Positions 35,002 through 59,022 of a stretch of 64,000 bases of DNA are shown one piece after another; the first letter of the stretch is position 1, and each line of letters opens with the position of its first letter. This stretch comes from a virus. The position numbers and the translations under genes were made by a program. The DNA lies in IMG/VR virus record IMGVR_UViG_3300023184_000039, positions 76,646 to 140,645 of that record, one strand, 5' to 3'. The notes under the pieces were generated by a model that was not told where the DNA came from, made no database searches, and saw nothing but the letters and a program-made list of their open reading frames with translations.

Positions 35002-35031
35002 TGTCTCATTAGCGTCCCACCCCACTAAGAT
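35002..35031 (+). promoter_or_regulatory. Motif promoter (first copy)
   Basis: TGTCTCA TTA GCGTCCCA CCCCAC TAAGAT. Confidence 0.8.
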
Positions 35032-35076
35032 TGCGTTGCCGCAAGGCACACGACATCTACGAAGGGGGTGAACAAA

Positions 35077-35289
35077 ATGGAAACTTGGGAAAAGGAAGGT
35101 TTTGCTTCAGAAGAGGCGTACTTGGAAGAGGCATATGCGAGTATAGAAGCCGAGCAAGAAGCGGAGTTCTGCATGAGCTTCGTCAACGGTGGGGGTCATT
35201 CCTCGGATTGGCGAGAGGCTTATCGCCAGTCGCAGATGACCGAGGAGGAGTTCTTCTTGTACCTCCACGCTCAATTCGGCGAAGTGTGA
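35077..35289 (+). CDS. Hypothetical early-type protein
   Basis: Downstream of a motif promoter. Confidence 0.65.
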   Translation: METWEKEGFASEEAYLEEAYASIEAEQEAEFCMSFVNGGGHSSDWREAYRQSQMTEEEFFLYLHAQFGEV

Positions 35290-35328
35290 CATAACGGGAT
35301 GCTGGCAGATGGTTGCTAGTATCTCGTT

Positions 35329-35574
35329 ATGAACATATCCACCGAAGAACCAACCGTCGCCGACCTTCTTGTCGAGCATTATTACACCCTTTCGACTACC
35401 GGGGCCAATGCAATCGCTGCAATCTGGGGTGATTTAGCTGATGGCAACTTCAGTGACAACCTTGTCGAGTGGGGTATGACTGAGTATCAGTTCATTGCCG
35501 CTGTAAATGATTTAGCACTCAACATTGCACATTCTGGGATGCTGTTCCGGGAACGAGCGGACAAACGTATCTAG
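35329..35574 (+). CDS. Hypothetical protein
   Basis: 81-aa ORF. Confidence 0.6.
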   Translation: MNISTEEPTVADLLVEHYYTLSTTGANAIAAIWGDLADGNFSDNLVEWGMTEYQFIAAVNDLALNIAHSGMLFRERADKRI

Positions 35575-35867
35575 CCGCGTATTCGGCTGTTACATTCGAG
35601 ACAAAACTCGGCCCACGGGTAAAATCTACGCATATTCGCTGGATGCTGACAATACAGAAGCTCACGCGCGCGAGCGTTCAGGATGTCCCGTATAAACGAA
35701 GACACGGTGATATTGAGCTTCTCTGCGGCCTTGCGCCACTCCTCTTTTTCTTCTGACGTTACGCGTATCATCACCTGGTTGTCAGCCGGGACATTCCCGG
35801 TGTTTGTTTCAGCTACGGGCTTTACGGCCATATCTGCTGTTTTCATACTTTTTGCCACGTCACTCAT
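35571..35867 (-). CDS. Ribbon-helix-helix-like DNA-binding protein with C-terminal Cys pair
   Basis: VMIRVTSEEKEEWRKAAEKLNITVSSFIR; C.H...CLEC. Confidence 0.6.
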   Translation of the reverse strand: MSDVAKSMKTADMAVKPVAETNTGNVPADNQVMIRVTSEEKEEWRKAAEKLNITVSSFIRDILNARARELLYCQHPANMRRFYPWAEFCLECNSRIRG

Positions 35868-36495
35868 TGCTTGCTTTAGTGATTTGTCCATCTTCGACCA
35901 TTTCTGCGTCAATTATTTCCTTATCCGATGAACCAGATAGTAGTTCCTTGAACATACCGTGAGGTAGAACTCCAGATGATGTCATCAACTCAATAAGTTT
36001 GCGGGCATCTTCTTCGGGACTAAAGCTGTTTACCGGGGCCGACATACCATCCTGGCCAGCCAATGTAGCTTTGATTACGTTCCCCGCGCCGCTTGATACA
36101 TCCATCGAAACATTTACGTTCACATTATCCATACCCAGGAGCTTCGTACGTCTGTCCATTATCGAAAGAACTGCGGTAACCGCCTTTAGGTCTGGCTCTA
36201 ATTGAAGTTCAGTCCCGTCAGCATCGGTCTGCTTTCGATTTTGCGTCATAGCCCAGATAGCGGACTGCAGCGCATCAAGCCGCTCAAGCTCAAGCCGCAG
36301 CACGTTTGAGTAATCGAGTTGCATTTCCTGGTTCATTTTCGTAAGTTGCCGCTGCACGGCCTTGTTGACCGCAATGGTTGTCATATCAAAACGTTTGGCT
36401 ATTTCTCGAACGCCAAGTCCGGCCTTCTTCATAGCGAATATGCGATAATCACGTTCGGCAAGGAACTCTCGATTAGTGGCCGGCTTGTTGCTCAT
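35860..36495 (-). CDS. Putative terminase small subunit
   Basis: N-terminal HTH; LELERLDALQ..AV..VLSIMDRRTKLLGMD pattern typical of actinophage TerS-like proteins. Confidence 0.6.
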   Translation of the reverse strand: MSNKPATNREFLAERDYRIFAMKKAGLGVREIAKRFDMTTIAVNKAVQRQLTKMNQEMQLDYSNVLRLELERLDALQSAIWAMTQNRKQTDADGTELQLEPDLKAVTAVLSIMDRRTKLLGMDNVNVNVSMDVSSGAGNVIKATLAGQDGMSAPVNSFSPEEDARKLIELMTSSGVLPHGMFKELLSGSSDKEIIDAEMVEDGQITKASNE

Positions 36496-36634
36496 TTTCT
36501 GTCAGACCTAATCATCAACACGGCCCAAATCAGCGTGAGAAATAATACGAAATAGAACATCTTGCTCACGCTCTCGCCTCCGAGTGGTTATGAATCAATA
36601 CATAAATCATAACACCATTGAGATAGCGAGATAA

Positions 36635-36820
36635 CTAGACGATTTCTTCCCAATCGTCAATGACCCAATCAAGATAGGTCTGGCCTTGGGCAATCTGCTC
36701 TTGTAAAGCGTTCATTACATCTAAGTCAGAGACCTGGTCCGCCATATCAACCTCGTCTTTGGCCTGAACACGAACGGTCACGGACGTAGTCATTGTGAGA
36801 AATACCTCGTAAGTTTTCAT
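36635..36820 (-). CDS. Hypothetical protein
   Basis: MKTYEVFL..; GAGGA RBS. Confidence 0.55.
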   Translation of the reverse strand: MKTYEVFLTMTTSVTVRVQAKDEVDMADQVSDLDVMNALQEQIAQGQTYLDWVIDDWEEIV

Positions 36821-36821
36821 A

Positions 36822-36965
36822 CTAGATTTCCTCTGCGATTTCGGATACAATTCCCATACGCTTTTTGTAAGCCTCATCGGCCAACTCTTGTGCGTGGTAG
36901 TAAGCCTCTGCGGCTTCCCAGCCAATGAGATTGTCGCTAAATACTGGTTCTGTGTGGTTGTTCAT
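36822..36965 (-). CDS. Hypothetical leaderless protein
   Basis: ATG 6 nt after the TATGAT of motif copy 36984. Confidence 0.6.
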   Translation of the reverse strand: MNNHTEPVFSDNLIGWEAAEAYYHAQELADEAYKKRMGIVSEIAEEI

Positions 36966-37002
36966 ACTCAAATCATACTCACTTGGGACGCTAGTGAGAC
37001 AG

Positions 37003-38784
37003 TTAGTCGTACTCCAGATACTCCAGCACCGTGAAAGCGAAACGTTCAGACTTATCGGCCCGACGCAGTAAGGTCGGCCACTTGCGCTGGTCTCTAGCTC
37101 CCCTGAAATGTCGAACTTCATAGGTAAATGGAGCTCCTGTTGGGACCGGAGACATCGAGATGCCAAACTCCGGCCAACGTGACCACACGCTGCTTCCAAA
37201 TGGCCGTAAATCGCGTGTTGCCATCGTAGTCCCGAGTGGTGCGTGATGCTCAAACCACATTGCGCACTTATACGTGACACGCAGCGAGTCTAAATATCGA
37301 GCTATCTCGACAGCAATGGCATCAGACGTGCGGCCGCCTGGGTCTATGTATGCCTTGTACAGCGGCCCCATACATATAAGTTCAGGCTGCACAATTTCTA
37401 TCTGTTTTTCGAGCAGCGCGCGGTCAGCGGCTTTGAGTAAATCAAGGCCGCCTGGCTTTGCATACAAACGTGCAAGATTATGCGGCTGCTTTCCGGTCCG
37501 CGCCCCATCAGAAATCATCTTTTTTGACATACGTCGAATGATTGTCTCTGGGTTCTCCAAGTCAACCGTAAGCGTTACAACGGGACGAATGGGTTGATAC
37601 GTGAACGGGTGTATTCCAGCTCCGGCCGTGATGGCTATTTGCCGCATAAGCATAGTTTTACCAACGCCTTCGGCCGCCACAACAATCACACGTTCTCCGC
37701 GCTCAAGAAGACCGGGTATAACCCAGTCGTAATCATCATTTTCTGCTTCTTTTACAAAATCTTCCCAAACAACTAAGCGGCCCGCATCGAGCGGCTCTTC
37801 AGCTGTAGCTGAGTTCGTAATCATCGACATTTTTGCTATTTTTTGCTGCGACGTCAGGTCCTCTCGACTAAATACTTCTCCAAGTCGAGTGAGTGCGCGG
37901 GTGAACGCATCTTCTGTTTCCACAACCACTTGTTCCATCGGGACTTCATCAGTATCTACGTGCAGCGTAAAATCGAGCGCAAGCGGCACAAGCTCTTCCA
38001 TCTTCCCGCCCGCCGCTAAGTGGTCAGAAATATCCTTATTTTTGGGACAAATCCAAACAGCTACGTCGCAGCCCGCTTCTGTTAGCTGCGTGAATACGTT
38101 AAGTGCGTGTTGCTTTCCAGCATCATCATTATCAGCAATGATGTCAATCGTTCCACCACCAGTAAGCGTCTCTGTATGAATATCAAGCCATTTTCCGGGA
38201 CCAGCGCCGCCCGGCATCGTCGTAGCCACAATCCCCATAGATATTAATGTTTCTGCGTCTTTTTCTCCTTCGACAACAAAGATGCTTGACCCGGCGGCAA
38301 CAGCGGCCGCGACTGCGGGTAAGTTATACAACACTTTTGGCGTATCTCCGAGTGAATACTCCCAACCGCCACTTCCATCGGGACGGCGTTGACGAAACGT
38401 CTTGCGGCCATCCTGGTCAACGTATCGAATCTTCTCAAACAGCAACTCTCCGAGCGCATCCTGGTACTCGTACGTAGCAACTTTTGTCAGTTTCTGTTCT
38501 TTTTTCACCGGCACCGCGGGCGTGTTTACGGGCTGCATACTCACCTGACGTGATAAATCATCCGGGAACAAATCATTCATCTTTATTCCTAATGTTTCAC
38601 ATATTTTGTCCGCACTGCAGCCGCCTGTGCCGCGAAAACAATGGAAAACGATGTGTTCGTCCCGTATCCCAACAGCCAATGATGGACTGTTGTCATCAAG
38701 GCGGCACGGGCAACGCGCTTGCCATTGGCCGTTACTTCCAGTTACGCCGTCAAGCCGCGCAAGTACGTCGTCAATGTGAATCAA
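37003..38784 (-). CDS. Primase-helicase (Zn finger + TOPRIM + RecA-like AAA domain)
   Basis: CPC..D..PSL..C....C; VVEGEKD; ADNDDAG; AAEGVGKT; DLEN. Confidence 0.88.
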   Translation of the reverse strand: MIHIDDVLARLDGVTGSNGQWQARCPCRLDDNSPSLAVGIRDEHIVFHCFRGTGGCSADKICETLGIKMNDLFPDDLSRQVSMQPVNTPAVPVKKEQKLTKVATYEYQDALGELLFEKIRYVDQDGRKTFRQRRPDGSGGWEYSLGDTPKVLYNLPAVAAAVAAGSSIFVVEGEKDAETLISMGIVATTMPGGAGPGKWLDIHTETLTGGGTIDIIADNDDAGKQHALNVFTQLTEAGCDVAVWICPKNKDISDHLAAGGKMEELVPLALDFTLHVDTDEVPMEQVVVETEDAFTRALTRLGEVFSREDLTSQQKIAKMSMITNSATAEEPLDAGRLVVWEDFVKEAENDDYDWVIPGLLERGERVIVVAAEGVGKTMLMRQIAITAGAGIHPFTYQPIRPVVTLTVDLENPETIIRRMSKKMISDGARTGKQPHNLARLYAKPGGLDLLKAADRALLEKQIEIVQPELICMGPLYKAYIDPGGRTSDAIAVEIARYLDSLRVTYKCAMWFEHHAPLGTTMATRDLRPFGSSVWSRWPEFGISMSPVPTGAPFTYEVRHFRGARDQRKWPTLLRRADKSERFAFTVLEYLEYD

Positions 38785-39119
38785 CGGGACTCTGGCTTTC
38801 CACTCATATCACGACGATAACTCGTACGCACACCAGGAAGCAAATCACGCTCAAATGTTTGTATTTTGATGCCGCGTTCTCTCCGGGTATAAAAACGCTC
38901 ACGTTCATCTTGCCCGCCCCAAACTCCAAGCGGCTCGTGTACGAGTGAATATTCTAAACAATTACTTACAACAGAACATCCAGAACAAATCAATTTAGCG
39001 GCAGTAACTTTTTGTCGGTCTTCTCGTATTTTCACATTTTGTGGAAAGAACAACGTTGTGTCTTGTCCTTTACAGGCCGCCTGGTTCATAAACGAAACAT
39101 TAACTTCAGTAATAATCAT
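38781..39119 (-). CDS. whiB: WhiB-family transcription factor
   Basis: AACKG..FFP..C..C.V...CLEY..GVWGG..ER. Confidence 0.92.
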   Translation of the reverse strand: MIITEVNVSFMNQAACKGQDTTLFFPQNVKIREDRQKVTAAKLICSGCSVVSNCLEYSLVHEPLGVWGGQDERERFYTRRERGIKIQTFERDLLPGVRTSYRRDMSGKPESR

Positions 39120-39133
39120 TTCCCCCTCTTTCG

Positions 39134-39538
39134 TTACTGTCCCGTCATTTTACTCACATCCCCACGAGAAAGAAAAATCGTTACTACTCTCTGCCCAGTT
39201 GGTTCATTGATTGTTACATCAATTGCATCCAAAGGCAACCCCAATCGTTTAGATATTTCAGCTTTTACTTTTGCTTGAGCTTCCAGCGACGCAATGATGT
39301 CTTCGTCAATATTTTCTAAATCATTTGCGGGTGCCGGGTTGAGGGCTAACAAATCTCGACGTTTATCGACAACTCGCAAACACCACGCGCACGCAAGCTT
39401 GGGCGCTGTGGACTTTCTCTCTCGAATCTCAACGTGCCCGCACTCGAGCGTGTGTTGATACTTTACTGCCCCCCACGTACCAACGCGGCTAATCATCGTG
39501 ATTTTGCGGCGCGGGGCTTTCCTGTGTTCTGTGGTCAT
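39134..39538 (-). CDS. Hypothetical protein (Cys-containing)
   Basis: LECGH..CAWC. Confidence 0.65.
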   Translation of the reverse strand: MTTEHRKAPRRKITMISRVGTWGAVKYQHTLECGHVEIRERKSTAPKLACAWCLRVVDKRRDLLALNPAPANDLENIDEDIIASLEAQAKVKAEISKRLGLPLDAIDVTINEPTGQRVVTIFLSRGDVSKMTGQ

Positions 39539-39550
39539 ACTTAGACATTA

Positions 39551-39588
39551 GTCCCGTTGGTGGAGGTGAAAATCCACACCAACGGGAC
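39551..39588 (-). terminator. Hairpin/terminator after ssb
   Basis: GTCCCGTTGGTG..CACCAACGGGAC. Confidence 0.65.
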
Positions 39589-39617
39589 CTTTGTCTTCTA
39601 GTTCTTACGCTAGATGG

Positions 39618-40073
39618 TTAGAAAGGTTCTGATTCAGTCTCAACTCCGACGCCAGCCATTGCTCGTTGACGTTGTGGTTGTGCTGCTTGTTTTGGTGCCG
39701 CTGCACCATCGGTATTTGATGCTTTACGTCGCTCGATGGACTCGATGCTACGGGTCAAGATGGCAATATCTTCGGCTACAAGCTCAGTCACGCTGCGCTT
39801 GTTTCCTTCTTTGTCATCGTATGAACGTTGTTCCAAACGTCCGTAAACCATTACGCCAATGCCCTTTTCGGCAACGCGCGCAAAGTTTTCTGCTACCCAA
39901 CGCCAGGCTACAACGTTAATGAACGAAACTTTTTCTTGTTTCGCATTTTTGTCGTCGTACCAGACGTAGTTGACCGCAACCGAAAAGGTTGCTTTTGGTG
40001 TCCCGCTTGGTAAGAATACCAATTCCGGGTCGGCTGTAATATTGCCGATGATTACTGTCGGTGACAGATTCAT
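39618..40073 (-). CDS. ssb: Single-stranded DNA-binding protein
   Basis: IIGNITADPEL..FSVAVN..GRLEQRSY..acidic EPF tail. Confidence 0.95.
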   Translation of the reverse strand: MNLSPTVIIGNITADPELVFLPSGTPKATFSVAVNYVWYDDKNAKQEKVSFINVVAWRWVAENFARVAEKGIGVMVYGRLEQRSYDDKEGNKRSVTELVAEDIAILTRSIESIERRKASNTDGAAAPKQAAQPQRQRAMAGVGVETESEPF

Positions 40074-40145
40074 TTATTTCTCCTTGTCTCGTGTGTTTCT
40101 TGCTAGGCTATTACCATACCACCACCTAGTGACAAAGGACAACAC

Positions 40146-40548: not shown

Positions 40549-41112
40549 TTGAAAACAATCACAGGCTGGGTTATATCTATTCTTATATTGAGCATCGGGT
40601 TGGCAATTCCGGTCCAAGCTCAGAAGGTTGATGCGCCCTCTGTGTCAGTCGTTCCACTAGTTGTTCCGGAACGGGTTGTTGAGACCGTTCCTAAAGCCAT
40701 TGTGTTCAGTCACGGCGATATCTCTTGGTTGCCTGAATTAGCAATACAAGCGGGTTGGAAGCCAAAACAGATTGCTCGGCTTGGTCAAATCATCTTACGT
40801 GAGTCGGGCGGTTGCCCTAATCGTAAGGGCGGCGACATTGTGGACAAGAACTGTAATGTCACGGGTATATCTGACCTTTCCCATCGCTCTGACTCAGGTC
40901 TACTCCAAATCAACGGGGTAAATTACGATGTTTCTCGCAATAAGTGGGCAACAGTTTGTAGAGCAGGCATCGCCTGTTCACAAGAACCACTTCTTGATGC
41001 CCTCACAAACCTTCGTGCCGGATACGAGATGTTCAAAGTGTCCGGTTGGGGGCCTTGGGACCCGTGCCAATGGGGTCCAGAGTATGCCGCTCGTTGTAAG
41101 GCTGGCAACTAA
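40549..41112 (+). CDS. Secreted lytic transglycosylase (SLT-like)
   Basis: Signal peptide; ILRESGG, DSGLLQIN, N...G..GWGPW. Confidence 0.85.
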   Translation: MKTITGWVISILILSIGLAIPVQAQKVDAPSVSVVPLVVPERVVETVPKAIVFSHGDISWLPELAIQAGWKPKQIARLGQIILRESGGCPNRKGGDIVDKNCNVTGISDLSHRSDSGLLQINGVNYDVSRNKWATVCRAGIACSQEPLLDALTNLRAGYEMFKVSGWGPWDPCQWGPEYAARCKAGN

Positions 41113-41603
41113 CTCTTGTCTAGTGACCTGTCTGAGGCAGGGTCACGTACTTCCCACAAACCCTTCTTGACCTTCCTGAAGTAAGGACTGTCCTGAACGA
41201 ACTTCAGGGTTGTTTGGTAAGAGAACCCACCAATCTCCACTAGTTCTTCCGTTGTCTTTTGGACAAAGATATTCTGTTTTGCCCAAGACACAAGTTTGTC
41301 GTACTTGTCTACTCGTTTCTCTTTGGGGGCGATAACTACTTCGTCAATGTCCTCGCCGCAATACTCCTGGACGAGTGAAATGATTGTCCTCTCGCTAACT
41401 GAATAACTCCCAAGAAGTCGGGCCGCAGAACCCTTGCCGTCCCAACCTTTGAGGATATAAAGTCCACGTGTACGGTCACTAATTGACTGAGCGACATCAC
41501 CTGGAACGGCAAACTTGTCTCCGTATTCTTGTGCAGCGTCGCGCCAAAGTGCCTGGTGTTCTGCCTCTATTTCATTGTCTGTGATTGTTCTGGTAAGTGC
41601 CAT
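41109..41603 (-). CDS. Hypothetical leaderless protein (possible C-terminal wHTH)
   Basis: ATG 6 nt after the -10 of motif copy 41622. Confidence 0.7.
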   Translation of the reverse strand: MALTRTITDNEIEAEHQALWRDAAQEYGDKFAVPGDVAQSISDRTRGLYILKGWDGKGSAARLLGSYSVSERTIISLVQEYCGEDIDEVVIAPKEKRVDKYDKLVSWAKQNIFVQKTTEELVEIGGFSYQTTLKFVQDSPYFRKVKKGLWEVRDPASDRSLDKS

Positions 41604-41605: not shown

Positions 41606-42070
41606 CTACATCATATCCAGATGGGACGCTAGTGAGACGCCTCTTGTTTCAGCGAGAAGTATCAGGTCTTTTGCGTTCTCAATGGCCGCATCAAGGTCAT
41701 CACAAATATAGTCAATGTGTTCACCGTCATTGGACAAGTCATACAAATCAAACCAAGAGTTATTGACCCACTCTGTTCGAGGGCCGGCATCAAAGACTTG
41801 TTTATCTGTAATGAAGTGTTCTTCTAAATCATCGCAGTACCGGACAACACTAAAGTTGCTATCTTTGTGTTTTGCTGCCGCATCTTCCCAGATATGGACG
41901 CGCATTTCACCATCGGCATAAATACCAATGAGATATTCACCCTTTCCTACAGAGCCAACGAGCTGATGACATTGATTATCCCAAGTCCACCACATCGAAT
42001 CTAATCGGTCCGGATTGCGAGGTTCCTCTAAATCAATAGTAAAACCATCGGCGTCAATGTACGGGTTCAT
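41606..42070 (-). CDS. Hypothetical protein
   Basis: 154-aa ORF whose 3' end runs through motif copy 41622. Confidence 0.65.
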   Translation of the reverse strand: MNPYIDADGFTIDLEEPRNPDRLDSMWWTWDNQCHQLVGSVGKGEYLIGIYADGEMRVHIWEDAAAKHKDSNFSVVRYCDDLEEHFITDKQVFDAGPRTEWVNNSWFDLYDLSNDGEHIDYICDDLDAAIENAKDLILLAETRGVSLASHLDMM

Positions 42071-42294: not shown

Positions 42295-42521
42295 TAAAGT
42301 TCCTCTCCGTCCTCGTCTGTGTAGATAAGACGGTGAAGACTACCAAAAATCTCTTGTGCTTCGGCATCAACCACTTCCATAATGTCATCAAGTGACGGGT
42401 CATTGTTCCCACCCTTGACTGCAAGTGTCTCGCAGATATCGGCCACATCAAACATAAAGAGTTTGCTGACATTTATGTATTTAGGAAGTGTTCCGTCCGA
42501 TAGGTGTTCCGTTGTCGTCAT
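42294..42521 (-). CDS. Hypothetical protein
   Basis: Translationally coupled operon member. Confidence 0.6.
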   Translation of the reverse strand: MTTTEHLSDGTLPKYINVSKLFMFDVADICETLAVKGGNNDPSLDDIMEVVDAEAQEIFGSLHRLIYTDEDGEEL

Positions 42522-42796: not shown

Positions 42797-42855
42797 AACT
42801 TCTCCTTGTGTAGTAGGTGTATTCATCTTACTTACTTGGGACGCTGATGAGACAG

Positions 42856-43092
42856 TCATAATGCGAAGGTCACCCCATCTGTGTCAATTCCGAATAGAAC
42901 ACCACCACCGTTGCCCTCGTAATCCTGTGAAGGATAAAGTCGGACACCGTTACTCAACACCATTACAAGTGGTGTTCCGTTTCCGTATCTGACTTCCCAA
43001 CCCTCTGCCTCAATTTCGGCAGGTGTCATTGGGCGAAGCTCGGTAATGGTCATACCCTCAATCGCTACTAAGTTTTCTGTTGTGTTTGTCAT
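42856..43092 (-). CDS. Hypothetical leaderless protein
   Basis: After motif copy 43111; PSQDYEGNGGG. Confidence 0.7.
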   Translation of the reverse strand: MTNTTENLVAIEGMTITELRPMTPAEIEAEGWEVRYGNGTPLVMVLSNGVRLYPSQDYEGNGGGVLFGIDTDGVTFAL

Positions 43093-43098: not shown

Positions 43099-43187
43099 AT
43101 AGTACCTAGTTGGGACGCTTGTGAGACAATTCGACCTCGCAAGCTCTCCGGCCCAGTTGTCTCATCTGCGTCCCAAGTTGTTATAGT
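43099..43187. promoter_or_regulatory. Back-to-back motif promoter pair
   Basis: Copies 43111(-) and 43158(+), with TACTAT and TATAGT boxes. Confidence 0.8.
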
Positions 43188-43687: not shown

Positions 43688-43882
43688 ATGACCAAACCAA
43701 TGACCAAACAGGAACGTGTTCTCCACGATATTCTCCACGACATTCGACTATGGGCATATTATGGAAAACAAGCTGATGCTGGTGCTGTTGAGCGTAGAAA
43801 AATCCTGCGGCATATAGAGAAGTTAGCCAAGTCTGCCCTAGATGTCTCACCTGCGTCCCAGCGAGGTAAAGTGAAAGTATGA
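43688..43882 (+). CDS. Hypothetical protein
   Basis: C-terminus encoded across motif copy 43843. Confidence 0.5.
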   Translation: MTKPMTKQERVLHDILHDIRLWAYYGKQADAGAVERRKILRHIEKLAKSALDVSPASQRGKVKV

Positions 43883-44502
43883 ACCCGACAGAATTACACC
43901 CCGACTTACAGGCGCACTCATACGAACACCCGGAATTGGGTTTCGCTATCGCGCACCCACTCTTACACACGATTGCTTGGGCCGATGCCGCGACTATCAA
44001 CAAGAATTATCTACAAAAAGTTGATGCTGTTGCGAGTGCGCTAGAGGAACAACGTTGGAGTTCGTACATCTATCTCCACGAAAAGCCATATCGGGTTGAC
44101 GCCTTCATTGAGGTCGCTGATGAGTTGGGCAACAAGGATTATTGGGAACTACTCGCAAGTGTTTGGACTGGCTCTGAAAACATTTGGCAAAACATTGACA
44201 GTTGGGTATCTCTTTGGAACTCGACCCGGCCTAACCGTGAACTGGCGATGACAGAGAACGACAGAGATGAACTGGCCGCATACCCGGACACGTTCACCGT
44301 TTATCGTGGCGCACTATTTGACGAGAACGAGCAAGGTATGTCTTGGACTAGCGACTACGACAAGGCTAAATGGTTCTCCACACGCTTCGCAGGAGAGGGG
44401 GATGTACCTGTAGTCGTGGAACGTGTCATCAACAAGAGCGAAGTCCTTGCCTACCTAAGTGGGAGAGGCGAGAGCGAAGTCGTATTGGACTTGTCTCTCT
44501 AG
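43879..44502 (+). CDS. Putative ADP-ribosyltransferase-like protein
   Basis: TVYRG..GMSWT..A.WF..GESEVV (R-S-E pattern); leaderless after a motif copy. Confidence 0.55.
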   Translation: MNPTELHPDLQAHSYEHPELGFAIAHPLLHTIAWADAATINKNYLQKVDAVASALEEQRWSSYIYLHEKPYRVDAFIEVADELGNKDYWELLASVWTGSENIWQNIDSWVSLWNSTRPNRELAMTENDRDELAAYPDTFTVYRGALFDENEQGMSWTSDYDKAKWFSTRFAGEGDVPVVVERVINKSEVLAYLSGRGESEVVLDLSL

Positions 44503-44548
44503 CGTCCCACTCGGATACGATGTAATCACTCAACAAGGGAGAAAACCG

Positions 44549-44789: not shown

Positions 44790-45110
44790 ATGGAATACGT
44801 CAAGGACGAATTAGAACTCTGGGAAGATAAATACAAGCCCGTACAAAACCACATCAACGGAGATGCGTCGTGGGACGGAGTAATGTATGAAACATACGGC
44901 GCAGAATACGATTATGTGACGAAAGTAGCGAGTTTGCAGCCACATAAAGTATGGACTTGGGTCGATGGTGACAATGGAACGTACATCATCAACGGTTGGC
45001 ATATGGTCAATCGCATTGGATACTTTATTACGCAAGTTCCGTGTGAGTTTGATGACCAAATTGAGGTTCGCGTGGACACCTATGATGATTCGGGTATCTA
45101 TTTAGTCTGA
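44790..45110 (+). CDS. Hypothetical protein
   Basis: YETYG.E..VWT.VDGD..G.H.VNRIGYFIT. Confidence 0.7.
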   Translation: MEYVKDELELWEDKYKPVQNHINGDASWDGVMYETYGAEYDYVTKVASLQPHKVWTWVDGDNGTYIINGWHMVNRIGYFITQVPCEFDDQIEVRVDTYDDSGIYLV

Positions 45111-45358
45111 TTCCTACGTCTCTGACGTTGTCTGAGAGTAGTCGCGCCCCATATGCCGTGAAGCTTCGGGTATGAATTAGCGAACTCGCCGCACTCAATG
45201 AGAACCGGACAAGTTTTGCATATTTCGACGGCCTTGCGGGTGCCGGTATTAGCTTCGCCACGTTCCGGGAACCACCAGCTCGTTGGGAGCCCTCTACAAT
45301 CGCCATCAAATCGAGGAACCGGTATTTCATCTTCGAGTATCTCGATATCGTGAAACAT
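45098..45358 (-). CDS. whiB: Second WhiB-family transcription factor
   Basis: C.G..WWFP..C..CPV..EC..GIWGA. Confidence 0.88.
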   Translation of the reverse strand: MFHDIEILEDEIPVPRFDGDCRGLPTSWWFPERGEANTGTRKAVEICKTCPVLIECGEFANSYPKLHGIWGATTLRQRQRRRNQTK

Positions 45359-48426: not shown

Positions 48427-48505
48427 ATCATAGCCAAGTGGGACGCTTATGAGACAATTCGACCCTATGGCCACTTGTCTCACGAGCGTCCCAAGTGGGT
48501 ATTAT
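48427..48505. promoter_or_regulatory. Back-to-back motif promoter pair
   Basis: Copies 48439(-) and 48476(+), with TATGAT and TATTAT boxes. Confidence 0.8.
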
Positions 48506-48760: not shown

Positions 48761-48820
48761 TTGTCTCACGAGCGTCCCAACTGGGTACACTTACTTCACC
48801 TACTACGAAACGAGGAACTG

Positions 48821-49174: not shown

Positions 49175-49378
49175 TCCAATAGAAGTGGACCTAGATACAG
49201 GACTAACAACGTGTTGCCTCGCCTACACAACTTATATGGATGATGGCAACGATGGTTGGATTGAGTGTTGCAAGGCTTGCTATGCAGAGATATCTGGCTG
49301 GGCCGGAGTTGCCCACTAGTCTCACAAGCGTCCCATTGGGATACGATTACTTCACCTACTAAACAGAAACGAGCAATT

Positions 49379-50740: not shown

Positions 50741-50986
50741 CTACATCTTACCTATTTGGGACGCTTGTGAGACAGGTCGCTTATGCTGCTGTCTCTTGGA
50801 CAGGGCAACCTCTAAGTTGGCTCGTGTATGTGCCGTGTCGCACCTGTAGCACCTAATATCGGCATTGTAGGCATTGAGTCGTGTATCGCAATCGTGGCAG
50901 ACTCGAACTATCTTTGCTCGCTCAATCACAATTTTGTTCTTTTTTATCTGAACGTACTCAGCTGATGTTCGCTGTGGAATACTCAT
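50741..50986 (-). CDS. Small Zn-finger protein
   Basis: CHDC..LNAYN..CYRC. Confidence 0.6.
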   Translation of the reverse strand: MSIPQRTSAEYVQIKKNKIVIERAKIVRVCHDCDTRLNAYNADIRCYRCDTAHTRANLEVALSKRQQHKRPVSQASQIGKM

Positions 50987-51299: not shown

Positions 51300-51718
51300 T
51301 ATTTACCTACCTTTATGAGTGGGCGAGTAAGTTGATTTCGTACATTGAGTGTATCTCCGATAAACCACATACGGTCAGTACCAACTTGTAGTGCTGCGAA
51401 TGGGTACTTGCTTCGCTTTGATGCGATACCAGCAAACAAGAACTTCTTGCCGTTGCTCGTGAACTCTTTGCCGAGAATGTCACTAGGCAAGTCGTATGAC
51501 CTAAACAATTGTTTGTAGGCATCGGCATACTCGCCACTAAGCGAAACACCATTGGCATCTTTGTTGTCAATACAGAATGTCAAACCAAACTTGACGAATG
51601 TATCCGAGTAAGTCGCATTGGATTTATCAACAGAGAGTCCGTGTTTTTTTAGAACTGGCTCAAGTGCTGCGAGCATATCGGCACGAACTTGCTGAACGGT
51701 TGCTTTGGTGATTGTCAT
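51299..51718 (-). CDS. Hypothetical protein
   Basis: AAGGAG RBS after motif copy 51759. Confidence 0.7.
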   Translation of the reverse strand: MTITKATVQQVRADMLAALEPVLKKHGLSVDKSNATYSDTFVKFGLTFCIDNKDANGVSLSGEYADAYKQLFRSYDLPSDILGKEFTSNGKKFLFAGIASKRSKYPFAALQVGTDRMWFIGDTLNVRNQLTRPLIKVGK

Positions 51719-51784
51719 AACGACTCCTTGTTTAGTAGGTGATTACATCGTATCGGGTTGGGACGCTAATGAGACTTGACCAGT

Positions 51785-52120
51785 TTATGGTCGAATGAAG
51801 TTGCCAGCTTCGTGGTCAAACCACTCGTTGGACTGAACTTGGTATCCCTTTTTCCGTTTGGCATCAATGAGTTCTTTAGCAACTCTTACGGCACTCTCCC
51901 ACGAGTAGTGAGTTGAGTTGTGTTGGCGTTGAAGGTTGTAACCCTCGTTGCGACCCCAGCGAACTGAGACGTCATACTTGACGATGTCTCGGCCGCCAGC
52001 ACGAACGAAGTCAACTTGTGGACTGATGACTACTTCGTATCGCTTCTTGTATCCAGCATCACCCCTGTCTCCAGTAGATGCCGATGTAAGGACTGCTTTT
52101 TGTTGGGTAAGTGTTGTCAT
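51785..52120 (-). CDS. WGR-domain protein
   Basis: K.YEV..VRWGR.G..A..LI..KRKKGY. Confidence 0.7.
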   Translation of the reverse strand: MTTLTQQKAVLTSASTGDRGDAGYKKRYEVVISPQVDFVRAGGRDIVKYDVSVRWGRNEGYNLQRQHNSTHYSWESAVRVAKELIDAKRKKGYQVQSNEWFDHEAGNFIRP

Positions 52121-52127: not shown

Positions 52128-52203
52128 ACCCTACAGAGCTGGGACGCTGGTGAGACAAATGGGATTCCGGGTTTGTCTCATATGCGTCCCAAATGGATAT
52201 GCT
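52128..52203. promoter_or_regulatory. Back-to-back motif promoter pair
   Basis: Copies 52140(-) and 52174(+), both leading to a leaderless ATG. Confidence 0.8.
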
Positions 52204-52209: not shown

Positions 52210-52665
52210 ATGACAACTTACCCGACAATCTCATCGCTACTTATTCGAGCCAATGGAACTACGGAGATTATCTCCCGTGACCTGAACGACCCTGATGGTT
52301 ACAAAGTCATCTCAACACTCGTTGCCGATGGCGGCCCGTTTGACATTGTCACCACTCGTGACAACTACACGATGTATGTAGATGACGAGGGATTACTCAA
52401 AGGTTCGCCAACAAACAATTTCGCATCGTTCATCACCAATCGGATTATCGTTGGTGATGTTCTCCTATGTGGCGAGGTCGATGACGAGGGCAACGATACG
52501 ACACTTCCAATTAAGTTGCTTGGACTTGATTTCAGTATTCTTTCCGACATCACCAATTCGGAGATAAACGATGACCTTGAAAAAATTAGGTCTGCGATGG
52601 ACTTGACTCCACAAATTATCCCAATGACCGACAAAGAGTTTTCGGACTATCTAGGTGTAGAGTAA
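52210..52665 (+). CDS. DUF3846-like protein
   Basis: MYVDDEGLLKG.P.N..AS..IVGDVLL.G..D.EG. Confidence 0.7.
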   Translation: MTTYPTISSLLIRANGTTEIISRDLNDPDGYKVISTLVADGGPFDIVTTRDNYTMYVDDEGLLKGSPTNNFASFITNRIIVGDVLLCGEVDDEGNDTTLPIKLLGLDFSILSDITNSEINDDLEKIRSAMDLTPQIIPMTDKEFSDYLGVE

Positions 52666-53401: not shown

Positions 53402-53566
53402 TTACAGTCCTCTCGCTTCCAATAGGGCATCGACTTGCTTCTCTACTCGCGCTATTCCGTACTCGTTGCCCTCTGCCTTGTACATCAAATACAGATTGAC
53501 CAAATACTCAATCTCGTCTAGTCGTACTTTTTGTTCGGCAAAGAACTGTTTCTCTGTTTGTTTCAT
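53402..53566 (-). CDS. Hypothetical leaderless protein (54 aa)
   Basis: ATG 6 nt after the TAAGGT of motif copy 53585. Confidence 0.6.
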   Translation of the reverse strand: MKQTEKQFFAEQKVRLDEIEYLVNLYLMYKAEGNEYGIARVEKQVDALLEARGL

Positions 53567-53603
53567 ACCACCACCTTACCGAATTGGGACGCTGGTGAGA
53601 CAA

Positions 53604-54383: not shown

Positions 54384-54830
54384 TTATTTACCTGCCCTTT
54401 TCATTAGTTTGGATATTTCGTCTGCGATATCTCCAGTTGCTGAGGTATCACAATGTTGTTCAGTTGGGTCATCCTCAAATCTCATAACACTTACCTGACC
54501 CTCTGAACTTGCGAACTGGAGTATGCGAACTCTCTTTCGCTCAAAACTTTGAGATGGTTTTGTGTCTAGGTTTGGTGCTGCCCAACCTGTCATCACGATT
54601 GCGATGTAGTCACTTGCTCGCACGATGTTCACGGTATCGGACTTATTCATCAAAGTCCACATATCGTCATCGGTCGAGGCGAGTACGAGAGTACCAATGA
54701 GTTCGCCTTCATCGTTTATTCTGTCTGTCTCACAAATAGAGAACAGACTTATTTTGTCAAGATGGAAATTGTCATTCGTTGAGAATAATATCTCGTCAAC
54801 GTGTGCTGCCTTTTCGGCGAATGAAATCAT
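54384..54830 (-). CDS. Hypothetical protein, paralog of 56866..57327
   Basis: GWAAP..PSQ..R.RVR..SV.RF.D. Confidence 0.7.
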   Translation of the reverse strand: MISFAEKAAHVDEILFSTNDNFHLDKISLFSICETDRINDEGELIGTLVLASTDDDMWTLMNKSDTVNIVRASDYIAIVMTGWAAPNLDTKPSQSFERKRVRILQFASSEGQVSVMRFEDDPTEQHCDTSATGDIADEISKLMKRAGK

Positions 54831-55037
54831 TTATGTTCTCCAGTTTCTAGTAGGTAAATAAGTGTATCGGGTTGGGACGCCCGTGAGACAAATCCGGAAT
54901 TGTTACATCCACTCCAATAAATCACCATCGGCAATTTCGTTGTAGTCCAAGTCGTTGGCATCAGCTATCGCTTGCCATACTGCTTCCTCAGTTAGAGGCA
55001 CACTCCAGTCAATGATGTCTTGCCAGTACTTGTTCAT

Positions 55038-55310
55038 TTATGCACCTACCAATTCTAGTTCGTAGTTGTTCTTGACTTCACGATTGAACCATTGTCCAAT
55101 GCTGTCGTTGTTGGAAACGATGAGAGCGAGCGAGGCGAAAACTTCGCTTGCGGCAGAACCAACAATTTCGTAGTTCTTGCCCGATACGAACCTAATCGTA
55201 AGTTTTGCATGGTGAGTAACACCAAAGTAATCAACACGACTTCCCAAATAGGTGACTTGGTCAATGACGGACGAATTGACCGAGATGACTGCGATATTCA
55301 TTTCATTCAT
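55038..55310 (-). CDS. KTSC-like protein
   Basis: NSSVI..V.Y..L.I.F.SG..Y..SIG.WFN..VK. Confidence 0.6.
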   Translation of the reverse strand: MNEMNIAVISVNSSVIDQVTYLGSRVDYFGVTHHAKLTIRFVSGKNYEIVGSAASEVFASLALIVSNNDSIGQWFNREVKNNYELELVGA

Positions 55311-55341: not shown

Positions 55342-55421
55342 ACTATATCCACTTGGGACGCTTATGAGACAAACCGGGTCAAGGGTCAAATTGTCTCACG
55401 AGCGTCCCACTCGGGTACTCT
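55342..55421. promoter_or_regulatory. Back-to-back motif promoter pair
   Basis: Copies 55354(-) and 55392(+), with TATAGT and TACTCT boxes. Confidence 0.8.
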
Positions 55422-55451: not shown

Positions 55452-55745
55452 ATGCAACAATGGATAGCTTTTTACACCAACGACAATGCCGGAGGTGCAG
55501 ACGAATCCGATTGGTGTCTATGTGATACCGAGTCCGATGCACAAATTGCCGCCGAGCATTACTACAACACTCTGGCCGACTTCTCGCTCTACTATCGGAT
55601 TGGCTTCGCTCTTGTTGAGTGTCCTGAATCTTGGGTCAAGTCACAACTAGAGAACGTCTATGACCTCTCCGATGATGAATACTTTTGGCCAATCCCGGAA
55701 ATTACCTACTTTGCACCCGAACAAGAAGAGATGCTGGAAGTCTAA
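55452..55745 (+). CDS. Hypothetical protein
   Basis: GAGGGG RBS. Confidence 0.65.
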   Translation: MQQWIAFYTNDNAGGADESDWCLCDTESDAQIAAEHYYNTLADFSLYYRIGFALVECPESWVKSQLENVYDLSDDEYFWPIPEITYFAPEQEEMLEV

Positions 55746-55805
55746 TTGTCTCACCTGCGTCCCACTCGGGTACGATTACTTCACCTACCAAACAAGGAGA
55801 AAGAT

Positions 55806-56090
55806 ATGACAGACATAATTGCAGACTTGCGCGACTTCCACCTACGGGTTGGCAGCACGTTGCTCAACGGCGCGACTGTTGTTGCGTGTACGAAAACTGG
55901 CGAGCGAGTAGAGAACGACACTCTTGCGAATTGGATTGCGATTTGCGTCAGAGGTGGAAAAAACTTTGATGACTATGTCGTATGGCGAATTAGCGCAACC
56001 GAAAAGGGTTTCTCTGCCGAGAGTGGAGACTACTCAAAGACACTCAACGAAGCCATTGAGGACTACGAACGTCGTGGAGGGAAAATATAA
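55806..56090 (+). CDS. Hypothetical protein
   Basis: AAGGAG RBS after motif copy 55747. Confidence 0.65.
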   Translation: MTDIIADLRDFHLRVGSTLLNGATVVACTKTGERVENDTLANWIAICVRGGKNFDDYVVWRISATEKGFSAESGDYSKTLNEAIEDYERRGGKI

Positions 56091-56312: not shown

Positions 56313-56543
56313 ATGAAACAAGAAAAAAGCAAAAAAGTCCAATCACAGATGAGCAGAATTGCTAAAAATATTTCTGTCATTCGGACGGAGCAAAATATGT
56401 CTCAAGGGATGTTGGCCACAAAAGCCGGCATTGACCGTAAGACAGTAAATCGGATTGAGAATAATCATTACTCGCCATCGTTGGAGACGTACTTCTCAAT
56501 TTGTGCAGCACTTCGCGTCGATGTAGCAGAGCTGATGTCGTGA
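56313..56543 (+). CDS. XRE-family HTH regulator
   Basis: R..QNMSQ..LA.KAGIDRKTVNRIE....PSL. Confidence 0.9.
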   Translation: MKQEKSKKVQSQMSRIAKNISVIRTEQNMSQGMLATKAGIDRKTVNRIENNHYSPSLETYFSICAALRVDVAELMS

Positions 56544-56865
56544 ACATGAAAATCCCCGACTACTTGTCTGCCGATGACCGTGCCAAGCGAAATGCCTGGT
56601 TGGTCAAGCGATACGGAGAAGGTGTTCTAAATCATCCGGTATTTGTCAACCCTAACCCTCAAGTAGAGGTTGAGGGTTTGCCAGAAGTAACCGACCAGTC
56701 AATTAGCTCCACCGAAAGCTAATCGACCGGGCCAGGCTCACCCCCCAACCCACCACTGTCAATCGGATTATTATTGACGGTGGTGGATAGTGGCGAATTG
56801 GTTTGTCTCACCAGCGTCCCAACCGACTAAGATGTCCTTACCTACTAGAAATAAGGAGAAATGAA

Positions 56866-57327
56866 ATGAAAGTTGATGTCACAATCGCAACACAAGTTGA
56901 GGAACAGGTTTCAGAAATTCTGAAATTGCGTGGCTCATTTGACACAAAACGGGCAGAACTTTACGCTCTGACCTTTGATACCAACGGTGGTGTTTCCGTA
57001 GAACTGATTACCAGCAACGGTGATGTGTACGAACTGATTGACAGCGCCATTGAGAACAAGTCAACCGAAGGTCTTGACGGTGTTGCCGTTCTGACTTGTG
57101 GTTGGGCAGCACCACTTCCTAAAGGTGAGACTGCTGATGATGATGATGATGACCGAGTGCCACCGAGCCAGCACCCCGAGCGACGCCGTGTTCGATTGGT
57201 CATTTGTGCCAACCGTGAAGGTGTAGCAAGTGTTCTACGGTTTCAGGACACACCTAACGAAATCACGACTGACGAGGGTTCTGCTAAAGGTTCACTCGCT
57301 GACGCGATACTGGCTCTTGTCTCATAG
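56866..57327 (+). CDS. Hypothetical protein, paralog of 54384..54830
   Basis: GWAAPL..PSQHPERRRVRL..SVLRF.D. Confidence 0.7.
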   Translation: MKVDVTIATQVEEQVSEILKLRGSFDTKRAELYALTFDTNGGVSVELITSNGDVYELIDSAIENKSTEGLDGVAVLTCGWAAPLPKGETADDDDDDRVPPSQHPERRRVRLVICANREGVASVLRFQDTPNEITTDEGSAKGSLADAILALVS

Positions 57328-57355
57328 GCGTCCCAATCAAGTAAGATGAAGTCAA

Positions 57356-57425
57356 GGTTTGGTTGAGTGGGTTTCAGAGAGTTGGATAAGTTTCCAACAT
57401 AGTACGAAATCTGCTCAACCAAACC
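57356..57425 (+). ncRNA. Candidate structured 5' leader RNA
   Basis: 20-bp stem 57356-57375/57406-57425 enclosing a GTTGGA/TCCAAC hairpin, starting at the predicted +1 of motif copy 57318. Confidence 0.55.
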
Positions 57426-57458
57426 GAAGTACCAACTACTAGAAATCGGAGAAACATA

Positions 57459-57878
57459 ATGGGTTATTACGTCAGAGCATATTGCTCGCCATTCAGAATG
57501 AAGAAGAAGAACTTTGATGAGGCTTATCGCCTTATGTGCGAACTCAACAATCTTCCCGACAGTGTGAAGAACGGTGGTGGGGGCGGCGAGAAATGGTTCT
57601 CGTGGATGGATGCAAACTATCCCGAGACTTGTGCAGACTTCATAGCGATACTTGATGCATTGGGGTTTCACCCCGAGTTTGATAAATTGACTGGCGACAT
57701 TGCTGACCTTGAATACGACAGCAAGATTGGTCAAGAAGATTTGTTCTTTCGCGCAATCGGTCATCTCGTAGAGCCAAACTCATTCATCTACTGGGAAGGC
57801 GAAGATGGTGAGAAGTGGAGATGGGTATTTGATGGCAAAGGAATGTCTACACAACACGGATTGGTAACTTATGCCTAA
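57459..57878 (+). CDS. Conserved phage protein
   Basis: MGYYV..WFSWM..W.GEDGE.WRW.F. Confidence 0.7.
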   Translation: MGYYVRAYCSPFRMKKKNFDEAYRLMCELNNLPDSVKNGGGGGEKWFSWMDANYPETCADFIAILDALGFHPEFDKLTGDIADLEYDSKIGQEDLFFRAIGHLVEPNSFIYWEGEDGEKWRWVFDGKGMSTQHGLVTYA

Positions 57879-58500
57879 CTGGTGCAACAATTCACTTACA
57901 GTCAGTGGGCCGGAGGAAACGGTCGCAGAGTTTCACGCAATCGTTATCAGGGATGGTAATTGTCGACTTACCAATCATTGGCCGACACCACAAGAGCTCG
58001 TAGACACACGTGCTGGAAGTGACCCAAGTGATGAAGAAGAGAGAATTGCATTCAAGAAACAGCAGCAATCAAACTTTGACAAGTACGGTGCACGAGATTG
58101 GTATGACTGGAACATCAACAACTGGGGAACGAAATGGAGCGATTCGGATACCGAACTGCAGACGGACAATGTGAAGGGACAACTGAACTATGTGTATCAA
58201 ACTGCCTGGTGTCCAGCACGCGGTCTCATTGAGAAGATGTCAATGGACTACCCAACACTCACATTCACTGGTGACTACTCCGAAGATGGAATTGGATTTA
58301 TGGGAGCATTTGAATTCATTGCTGGAGAAATGACCAAAGAAATAACAGGCGACATCGGTGACGGTGTAATTGCTCTGAGCGATGGACAGATATTCACATT
58401 CCCACCATACGATGAGGACTCACCACTCGGTGATGACCAATGGGAAATAATCCATCAAGTACAGAACACTGCATTTGAATCTATGGTGATGTCGTTATGA
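57871..58500 (+). CDS. DUF1281/YubB ferredoxin-like fold protein
   Basis: MPNWCNN.L..WYDW...NWGTKW..TAW.P. Confidence 0.8.
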   Translation: MPNWCNNSLTVSGPEETVAEFHAIVIRDGNCRLTNHWPTPQELVDTRAGSDPSDEEERIAFKKQQQSNFDKYGARDWYDWNINNWGTKWSDSDTELQTDNVKGQLNYVYQTAWCPARGLIEKMSMDYPTLTFTGDYSEDGIGFMGAFEFIAGEMTKEITGDIGDGVIALSDGQIFTFPPYDEDSPLGDDQWEIIHQVQNTAFESMVMSL

Positions 58501-59022
58501 CACCAGCAAGAAAGAACTCTCGAATTAGCCGGCTATTGTCTTCAAGACAACAACGTCGTCGCCAGCAGCAATCCAGGAATCACCCGCGCTCGCGCGAACC
58601 TGTTCCGTCTCACGGCTCGGAGTAACTGGGAATGGTTCTCGGGGTGGCTCATCGTCCAGGCGGTCAGCTGGTGGCCGGCTTGGTTCCACCGGAGCGATGA
58701 TGGTCGTGGCCACAACCCCCACGTCAGGTGTAATTATTATTGACGGTGGTGGAAGAGCCGGCGATTCCAAAGTCTCAACCTCTACTTCAGGGTTAGGGTC
58801 TACCAAAGTCTCAACCTCTGCTATATCGTAAACCTCAAGCACTGAATCCACCTGACCATTCGTATGGCCAGACATTGTGACATAACTATAAATTTGTTCT
58901 TTGCGCATATAAACACCATACACCTTTGGCGAATTCAACAGGGTAAGTGGGTTTGTCTCATAAGCGTCCCAAGTTACTAAGATGTATTTGTTAGTCCACC
59001 TACTAGAAATTGGAGAAATGAA

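Follow-up and report, generated by a model that had tools for sequence, protein, structure and literature searches.

Which polymerase, and with what helper, reads a promoter-like element that a freshwater virus carries in 24 nearly identical copies ahead of its small early genes? The element, TGTCTCA-N3-GCGTCCCA-N6-TANNNT, had been noticed in a 64,000-nucleotide stretch of DNA (hereafter the window), which corresponds to bases 76,646-140,645 of the 140,645-bp virus record IMGVR_UViG_3300023184_000039. That sequence-only reading had proposed a dedicated regulon served by host sigma-A and a spacer-binding activator or repressor. In our analysis, the 24 copies are a genuine promoter family whose general kind is known, with a non-canonical build resembling sigma adaptation and a new link to the promoter of the host recCBD operon.

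The genome was scanned for the full pattern, with up to 3 mismatches allowed. This yielded 20 exact matches and 4 with one mismatch, which always fell within the TGTCTCA part; from dinucleotide shuffles, 0.00-0.03 matches were expected. The plus strand carries 13 copies and the minus strand 11, as had been claimed, and the claimed co-orientation with the downstream gene holds as well, since every copy is directed toward an open reading frame (ORF). All 24 are found inside window positions 35002-58983, a single block of about 24 kb; the search of the full genome, which had been suggested as a check, gave no additional copy in the rest of the 140,645 bp. Four pairs of promoters are arranged back to back (43127-/43159+, 48455-/48477+, 52156-/52175+ and 55370-/55393+).

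When the copies are aligned, G-35 to C-31, G-26 to A-19, T-12, A-11 and T-7 are invariant (24/24), while A-30, T-36 and T-37 are found in 23, 21 and 17 of the 24 copies, respectively. The upstream part is divided into two units of 11 bp, in each of which 8 bases are fixed and 3 are freer: TTGTCTCA and its freer bases occupy -37..-27, GCGTCCCA and its freer bases -26..-16. The position table thus bears out the GTCTCA/GTCCCA direct repeat with its 11-bp period, the TTGTCT located 19 bp from the -10 box and the TANNNT box 6 nt after GCGTCCCA. The statement that N3 and N6 vary freely was slightly overstated: both do vary, with a bias at position -29 (C or T in all copies), at -27 (A in 18/24), at -18 (A in 15/24) and at -14 (G in 17/24). 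At +1, 19 of the 24 copies have an A.

Several known promoter types were compared with this layout. The TAnnnT at -12..-7 with its invariant A-11 and T-7 is the -10 box of an actinobacterial sigma-A promoter, which supports the assignment to sigma-A. A TTGACA-like -35 at 16-18 bp is absent, TTGTCT being placed at 19 bp; at 17-bp spacing, GTCTCA matches the -35 consensus in 3/6 positions, and a scan with consensus promoters does not detect the 24 sites. The -10 hexamers are varied and are not TG-extended. The analogy to MerR-activated promoters is not supported, because the 19-bp spacer contains no MerR-type dyad and the conserved part is a direct repeat. Two 11-bp direct-repeat units that overlap the -35 region do correspond to the class II layout of SARP/OmpR sites, and the 8+3/8+3 arrangement at -37..-16 therefore upholds the suggestion of a bipartite element of this kind in place of the -35.

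Two classes of gene start follow the -10 box. In the leaderless class, which comprises 9 copies, an ATG follows the box at a distance of exactly 6 nt (7 nt in one case) and opens an ORF of 47-207 amino acids (aa); a tenth, possibly leaderless copy has a GTG at the expected position. By our own estimate, about 0.07 such start codons would be expected by chance among 24 sites. This geometry is typical of leaderless mRNAs from actinobacterial sigma-A promoters, and the 9-10 start codons lend indirect support to the proposal that transcription starts 6-7 nt downstream of the box. Judged by these features of their sequence, the 24 sites are promoters.

The leadered class comprises 11-12 copies, in which a shared leader begins at the same position after the box. 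It consists of ACCTACTA (or ACCAACTA / ACCTACCA), a few A-rich bases, AGGAG and then ATG. Nine of the 13 exact genomic copies of the ACCTACTA leader lie behind these promoters, 5.3 being expected genome-wide by chance, and the leader is almost restricted to this regulon. The form ACCTACTA(A/G)A..AGGAG occurs at window positions 42818, 43194, 48798, 49354, 51740, 54855, 55335, 56840 and 58998, in addition to variants. Behind the promoters 48455-, 57319+ and 58955+, the leader is farther from the predicted start and keeps its usual distance to the ribosome site. Since its spacing follows the ribosome site and not the start, we regard the leader as a part of the message and not of the promoter; it may serve message-level control or as a translation signal. 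The leader of promoter 23 (57354-57458) can fold (-38.6 kcal/mol, z -6.6) into a stem of 20 bp that encloses a hairpin; the sister phage G001, described below, has a conserved version of this sequence, and Rfam gives no match to it. As for RNA, some metatranscriptome contigs cross promoters, such contigs carrying no start-site information. One contig from this run, of depth 562, covers window 42539-42777 inside the 91-aa gene of promoter 4 and bears a 'goes back 239' joint; other phage genes in the same run have depths of 5-17.

Strain contigs of about 95% identity provided 17 orthologous promoter pairs. In these, none of 272 element positions and none of 204 positions of -12..-1 had changed, whereas the flanks, N3 and N6 change in 3-6% of positions; the pairs had been picked via the motif with at most 1 mismatch, and the counts carry this ascertainment caveat. 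The element is under purifying selection. In strain contig L081 (2115-2720, compared with window 36822-37001), the leaderless gene that follows the same promoter copy is a different one, the break falls inside the promoter between GCGTCCCA and the -10 box, and one extra promoter-gene cassette is inserted. Due to this gene swap and insertion, the repeats appear to act also as recombination joints in the manner of the PeSL cassettes of T4-type phages. Terminator-like hairpins are not enriched.

To look for the element in hosts, the full 30-nt pattern was searched in one genome per species for about 185,000 prokaryote species and in metagenomes. The species scan returned five hits, four of which are in freshwater Actinomycetota genomes, including Acidimicrobium sp. 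UBA3029 and an Ilumatobacteraceae bacterium. The metagenomes added, besides strains of this phage, six further copies of the same locus; the matches elsewhere that were inspected fall within coding sequence of unrelated bacteria, and three single matches, among them the fifth species hit, are in DNA of 57-69% G+C. At the shared locus, TGTCTCAC-nA-GCGTCCCA-CTTCAC-TAAAGT is followed by 6 nt, an A, AGGAGG and ATG. All of these sites lie between genes and point the right way; TAAAGT or TAAGGT follows after 6 nt, and behind it come a Shine-Dalgarno site and ATG. The gene is recC (Pfam Exonuc_V_gamma and RecC_C), and, judging by position and size, we take the ORFs of 1,074 and 565 aa that come after it as recB and recD. 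N3 alone varies among the host species, and the sequence upstream of -37 diverges. The exact phage element thus heads a host recCBD operon, which strengthens the earlier remark that a host regulator was possible.

The host genus is represented by 58 genomes of 0.9-2.2 Mb, and recC was detected in 8 of 41 that were sampled. The element is restricted to five species whose RecC proteins are 92-100% identical; one of them has AGTCTCA, a variant that is also used by the phage. The recC locus has the same G+C content as the host recA locus. Since recA has an ordinary promoter (TTGACC-17-TAAGGT and a LexA box), the host sigma factor is conventional. A 133-aa ORF upstream of recC has no phage homologue. 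Given the habitat, the phylum, the intergenic position, the orientation and the rmuC case described below, we put a chance explanation of the match below about 1%, a figure that we estimated and did not compute as a P value. The host is probably a sub-clade of streamlined freshwater Ilumatobacteraceae.

The virus itself is far removed from any cultured phage: a nucleotide search of GenBank phages gave no match and no close relative, and its helicase and the helicases of Arthrobacter phages share only 32% identity. Sister phages were found via the helicase and an early protein. They keep the architecture, i.e. an element, about 6 variable bases, TAnnnT, 6 bases and a leaderless ATG or ACCTACTA leader, and in each lineage the element is private. 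G001, whose helicase is 77% identical, has 16-17 copies of ATCGCCAAnAAG-N4-TCCC-kA-N5-TAnnnT (as a pattern, ATCGCCAAnAAG-N4-TCCC-N7-TAnnnT); G002 has 11 copies of TTGGAAATCTGAAGCACC-N7-TAnnnT; and G005 has about 32, nearly all leaderless, of GTTG-N4-TA-N3-C-ATTATTGCC-TG-TAAGGT-N6-ATG (pattern form ATTATTGCCTGTAAGGT). The elements of this phage, G001 and G002 have in common only G-24, a pyrimidine at -23, C-21 and C-20. Orthologous genes are found under different elements, such as gene 43218 and its 86%-identical counterpart behind G001's own element. In IMG/VR, the exact 18-nt core gave only 14 single matches, which we take as chance. The shared leader is conserved in G001, G002 and G005 despite their differing promoter elements. 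G005 also contains a strong Sigma70_r4-like helix-turn-helix (HTH) (E 2.5e-13; G005:C1:55162-55290) inside an 879-aa open frame.

A second match between phage and host came from G002, whose element, also written GGAAATCTGAAGCACC-N7-TAnnnT, has one match in promoter position in the host genus. There, GGAAATCTGCAGCACC is followed by 7 nt, TACCAT, 6 nt and the ATG of a 396-aa gene, which we take to be rmuC from recognised sequence hallmarks. The gene is present in 46 of the 58 genomes, and throughout the genus its leaderless promoter is conserved and resembles the G002 element to varying degrees: 15/18 positions agree in one species and 11/18 in its close relatives, all of which share N7, TACCAT, N6 and ATG. 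The clade with the recC element likewise has GCACC at -24..-20 of the rmuC promoter. The pattern GYMCC-N7-TAnnnT-N6-ATG is not enriched in the host (9 against 6 in the control), and what it finds there is rmuC and ftsK. In the host, the promoters of recC and rmuC (L080:2259-10527, L217:1501-2726) both have CC-n-CTTCA(C/G) directly before the -10 box, and ftsK in the same hosts has a conserved leaderless promoter, GTACC-N7-TAAGTT-N6-ATG.

Phage proteins that might read the element were also considered (Table 1). The XRE and RHH proteins, which had been named as possible readers, are unlikely to recognise a private element: the recognition helix of the former and the DNA-facing beta-strand residues Q, R and T of the latter are conserved across lineages while the elements differ. 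A 211-aa HTH protein (35860-36495) was rejected because its recognition helix is identical in G000 and G001. A WYL domain above the Pfam cut-off (window 32340-32510) is located inside a cargo polyprotein (25880-33961), just after an LGSR linker and flanked by a GNAT-like part and an RNase_T exonuclease; with no HTH beside the WYL domain, the polyprotein was rejected as a PafBC-like factor. Of the three WhiB-like genes in the genome, the one in the SSB-WhiB-primase unit encodes the best phage-encoded candidate reader. Its orthologues are 38-40% identical between lineages, with divergent tails, and by eye the N-terminal stretch of the G005 orthologue (L057:12559-13167) resembles a helix-turn-helix. 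WhiB tails and element types were compared at 80 loci, whose 8-kb flanks seldom include promoter arrays.

Sigma factor domains (Sigma70_r2, Sigma70_r4) were not found in the phage, and a Pfam search of its large proteins gave no phage RNA polymerase. Because of this absence, the -10 box and the start geometry, we consider the host sigma-A polymerase to be the enzyme. The reading that we favour, tentatively and with a little less than even confidence, is that the phage promoters are host-derived and are read by this polymerase together with a putative host adaptor protein. Sigma region 2 would read TAnnnT at -12..-7, and transcription would start at the A 7 nt after the box, so that an mRNA would be either leaderless or headed by the shared ACCTACTA..AGGAG leader. 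The 19-bp bipartite element would stand in for the -35 contact as the docking site of a DNA-binding adaptor, lodged between the DNA and sigma region 4 as SARP/AfsR and PafBC are in class II activation or 'sigma adaptation'; it is from the 8+3/8+3 layout and the PafBC-like build that we infer the docking adaptor, and activation rather than repression. Each phage lineage would have copied and multiplied one host DNA-repair promoter, which host sigma-A and the host factor could read as soon as the DNA enters. Such a host reader would also solve the problem of early expression at a time when the phage has no protein of its own. With the same element at recCBD and the sister match at rmuC, the copying of host promoters is the most economical explanation, and since the rmuC type of promoter is both old and common throughout the genus, the direction from host to phage is favoured. 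A wider scenario is possible but doubtful: related lake phages would each have copied a different host DNA-repair or nuclease promoter (recCBD here, rmuC in the sister phage) and multiplied it 10-30 times, so that early expression rides on a host factor responding to foreign or damaged DNA, while the copies could also soak up this factor and blunt RecBCD induction. The converse, with host nuclease genes that have evolved to respond to a phage activator, has to be kept on an equal footing.

A number of observations weigh against the favoured reading. The start sites are deduced from sequence, and the sole RNA run consists of assembled contigs, which are unable to show 5' ends. No reader was identified by the domain searches of the phage, where the OmpR-type winged helix Trans_reg_C (PF00486) was found neither in this genome nor in three relatives, or among the neighbours of recC (ARPP-1 domain, HD domain and phosphatase-like proteins, and unknowns, with no regulator adjoining); host genomes were not searched for a cognate OmpR/SARP protein. 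Each host genome has the element only once, also when searched with a relaxed direct-repeat pattern, so the putative factor would have a very small regulon, and a broad host regulon was rejected. Phage and host share no other DNA, and the promoter match is the sole basis of the host assignment; a 596-Gb database allows a single chance hit. Neither the G001 nor the G005 element has a counterpart among the 58 genomes of the host genus, near matches to the G001 element lacking a -10 box at the right distance. Finally, fast lineage-specific turnover of an element is typical of phage-encoded specificity factors. The main rival is an adaptor or activator encoded by the phage, comparable to T4 MotA/AsiA or to a one-piece sigma adaptor. 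Expressed immediate-early or injected with the DNA, it could dock at -37..-19 and recruit host sigma-A polymerase; element and reader would then co-evolve, hence the private elements, and recC and rmuC would be host nuclease genes wired to a phage activator, or targets of the phage protein. Four related phages with the same architecture and different elements agree with this, as do the divergence of the WhiB orthologues and the HTH-like stretch in G005, the position of this WhiB gene among the few early genes without the motif, behind a promoter of its own, and the fact that both host genes with phage-like elements are DNA nuclease/recombination genes. We nevertheless consider a phage-encoded reader rather unlikely in view of the age and spread of the rmuC promoter type in the host genus and the failure to find a winged-helix or sigma-like protein in this genome; to our knowledge, moreover, no known WhiB-like protein reads a specific site of 16-18 bp.

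Sigma-A could also read the promoters alone via the -10 box, with the element serving as the operator of a phage repressor that shuts early genes off later and that might silence host recCBD as well. The sites are asymmetric, numerous, co-oriented and lineage-private, like stoperators; RHH and XRE proteins are encoded behind motif promoters; and in G005, a promoter that is complete in other respects (TTG, 17 bp, TGTAAGGT) has the private block in its spacer, a typical operator position. This would, however, require promoters of sufficient intrinsic strength, which is doubtful with no -35 at 16-18 bp, no TG-extended -10 and varied hexamers, and it is activator sites that typically have direct-repeat 8+3 units adjoining the -10. 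RHH and XRE keep their DNA-reading residues whichever element is present, and a host would be expected to lose a site that lets a phage silence recCBD, which makes an operator improbable. Least of all do we expect that there is no dedicated reader and that promoter-gene cassettes merely spread by recombination through repeats, with the host matches arising by chance or as a by-product. The gene swap, extra cassette and break inside the promoter of L081 would suit such a spread, for which PeSL cassettes are a precedent (PMC2839356, PMC4122927). Gene conversion would, however, homogenise N3 and N6, and these vary while 16 positions are invariant; the same fixed and free positions recur at host recC across five species. 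This explanation is therefore very improbable.

The genome that carries the family has a G+C content of 44.7% and is a closed assembly, since the final 127 bases of the record are a copy of its opening bases; it was found in lake and freshwater metagenomes of 16 studies. The genes behind the 24 promoters (Table 1) are mostly small and without known family, the named products being KTSC, WGR, DUF3846, XRE, RHH and HTH proteins, and searches of ten early proteins against PHROGs were uninformative. The regulon includes the helicase with the WhiB gene behind it and the AAA ATPase that heads the replication block. The SSB-WhiB-primase unit (37003-40073, minus strand) is without the motif and has its own promoter, TTGTCC-18-TATGGT, at about 40090-40125 on the same strand.

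Table 1. Predicted promoters of the 24-copy family and candidate phage-encoded readers (window coordinates)
Feature	Position	Strand	Predicted start, leader and gene, or protein features
Promoter 1	35002..35031	+	predicted start 35038, 30-nt leader, gene 35068-35289 (73 aa)
Promoter 2	36972..37001	-	leaderless ATG 36965, ORF 36822-36965, 81% identical in G001; unit extends to HTH protein 35860-36495 and RHH protein 35571-35912
Promoter 3 (CGTCTCA variant)	41610..41639	-	leaderless gene 41109-41603 (164 aa)
Promoter 4	42825..42854	-	ACCTACTA leader from 42818, gene 42521-42796 (91 aa)
Promoter 5	43099..43128	-	leaderless gene 42856-43092 (78 aa); back to back with promoter 6
Promoter 6	43158..43187	+	ACCTACTA leader from 43194, gene 43218-43676 (152 aa)
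Promoter 7	43843..43872	+	leaderless gene 43879-44502 (207 aa, phrog_4776)
Promoter 8 (TGTCTCT variant)	44492..44521	+	leader with GGGAG, gene 44549-44788 (79 aa)
Promoter 9	48427..48456	-	GTG at predicted start 48420, or ACCAACTA leader 10 nt later and GTG near 48387; KTSC-domain protein; helicase 45387-47243 and WhiB 45098-45358 downstream
Promoter 10	48476..48505	+	leaderless gene 48512-48760 (82 aa)
Promoter 11	48762..48791	+	ACCTACTA leader from 48798, gene 48821-49174 (117 aa)
Promoter 12 (AGTCTCA variant)	49318..49347	+	ACCTACTA leader from 49354, gene 49379-49780 (133 aa)
Promoter 13	50745..50774	-	leaderless gene 50478-50738 (86 aa)
Promoter 14 (AGTCTCA variant)	51747..51776	-	ACCTACTA leader from 51740, gene 51299-51718 (139 aa)
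Promoter 15	52128..52157	-	leaderless, 7-nt gap, gene 51785-52120 (111 aa, WGR domain)
Promoter 16	52174..52203	+	leaderless gene 52210-52665 (151 aa, DUF3846)
Promoter 17	53573..53602	-	leaderless gene 53402-53566 (54 aa)
Promoter 18	54861..54890	-	ACCTACTA leader, gene 54384-54830 (148 aa)
Promoter 19	55342..55371	-	ACCTACTA leader from 55335, gene 55038-55310 (90 aa)
Promoter 20	55392..55421	+	ACCAACTA leader from 55428, gene 55452-55745 (97 aa)
Promoter 21	55747..55776	+	ACCTACCA leader from 55783, gene 55806-56090; unit reaches XRE gene 56313-56543
Promoter 22	56804..56833	+	ACCTACTA leader from 56840, gene 56866-57327 (153 aa)
Promoter 23	57318..57347	+	105-nt leader 57354-57458, ACCAACTACTA, Shine-Dalgarno site, gene 57459-57878
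Promoter 24	58954..58983	+	ACCTACTA starts 9 nt past predicted start; AAA ATPase gene 59023-59754 and operon behind
WhiB-like protein	38781..39119	-	112 aa, long basic C-terminal tail, in SSB-WhiB-primase unit
Second WhiB-like protein	45098..45358	-	86 aa, paralogue without positional counterpart in sister phages
XRE (HTH_3) protein	56313..56543	+	recognition helix conserved across lineages with different elements
RHH and zinc-ribbon protein	35571..35912	-	DNA-facing beta-strand Q, R, T conserved across lineages

Other features of the same DNA were recorded alongside the promoters. A second repeat, TTATTATTGACGGTGGTGGAA(A/G), was seen about 13 times, in each case on the plus strand, where genes of the replication block adjoin (window 56775-63918, genome 45-1492; e.g. 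window 58741, 62312, 63134 and 63657); at 56740-56795, a little upstream of promoter 22, two of its copies are paired in inverted orientation. It corresponds to the one-directional junction word TGACGGTGGKGGAW. Rfam gave no match across window 34-64 kb. Elsewhere in the window, positions 22426-24540 encode a protein of 704 aa in which a C-5 cytosine DNA methyltransferase domain was detected (E 9.5e-51), and positions 15042-16961 (minus strand) a class II ribonucleotide reductase.

Should the favoured reading be true, it would offer a sequence-only route for assigning uncultured phages to hosts and would point to a sigma-adaptation-type regulator of DNA-repair genes in Acidimicrobiia, so far unknown. 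Phage and host would then compete over one transcription signal that is tied to the main anti-phage nuclease. For mechanistic work, 24 natural variants of one non-canonical actinobacterial promoter are available.

Private promoter families are familiar in phages. In the literature, we found no description of an early-promoter family that equals a host RecBCD operon promoter base for base. The stoperators of Cluster A mycobacteriophages, which are read by the immunity repressor of temperate phages, are likewise about two dozen asymmetric, co-oriented and lineage-private sites, but they are not tied to a -10 register, whereas the phage copies described here all stand in fixed register with the -10 box and the gene start. 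In T4 middle promoters (MotA box at -30, MotA/AsiA), a phage-specific box similarly replaces the -35 while the host -10 is kept; no MotA/AsiA relatives are evident here, and the element is identical to a host promoter, a situation that we do not know of for T4. PeSL cassettes resemble the present ones in that near-identical early promoters flank small accessory genes in a plastic region in which strains differ; unlike PeSL, the promoter here is not a canonical -35/-10 and no paired stem-loop terminator is established (PMC2839356, PMC4122927).

The closest likenesses in build are found in two actinobacterial systems. In the SARP/AfsR regulation of Streptomyces, a SARP dimer binds the afs box side by side, with sigma region 4 resting on it; as in the phage, there are two 11-bp direct-repeat units of 8 contacted and 3 uncontacted bases at about -40..-19, a displaced poor -35 and an extended spacer, and the housekeeping sigma reads the -10 (PMC10936776). 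The phage differs in its half-site GTCyCA, in an element 3 bp nearer to the -10 and in the presence of 24 copies in a virus; no SARP/OmpR-type domain was found in the phage, and the sister-phage elements are not direct repeats. PafBC (RecA-NDp) promoters, which serve the DNA-damage response of mycobacteria, have the form tGTCgg-N10-TAnnnT with GTC at -27..-25, whereas the phage has GTC at -24..-22 and -35..-33 in a much longer element, and the host recA here has an ordinary LexA-box promoter. The two nevertheless agree in the TAnnnT -10 box, the lack of a -35 and an upstream element with GTC in the -20s, the PafBC promoters having a -26 element (PMC8635444). PafBC also controls DNA-repair genes, and the host copies described here head recCBD and rmuC.

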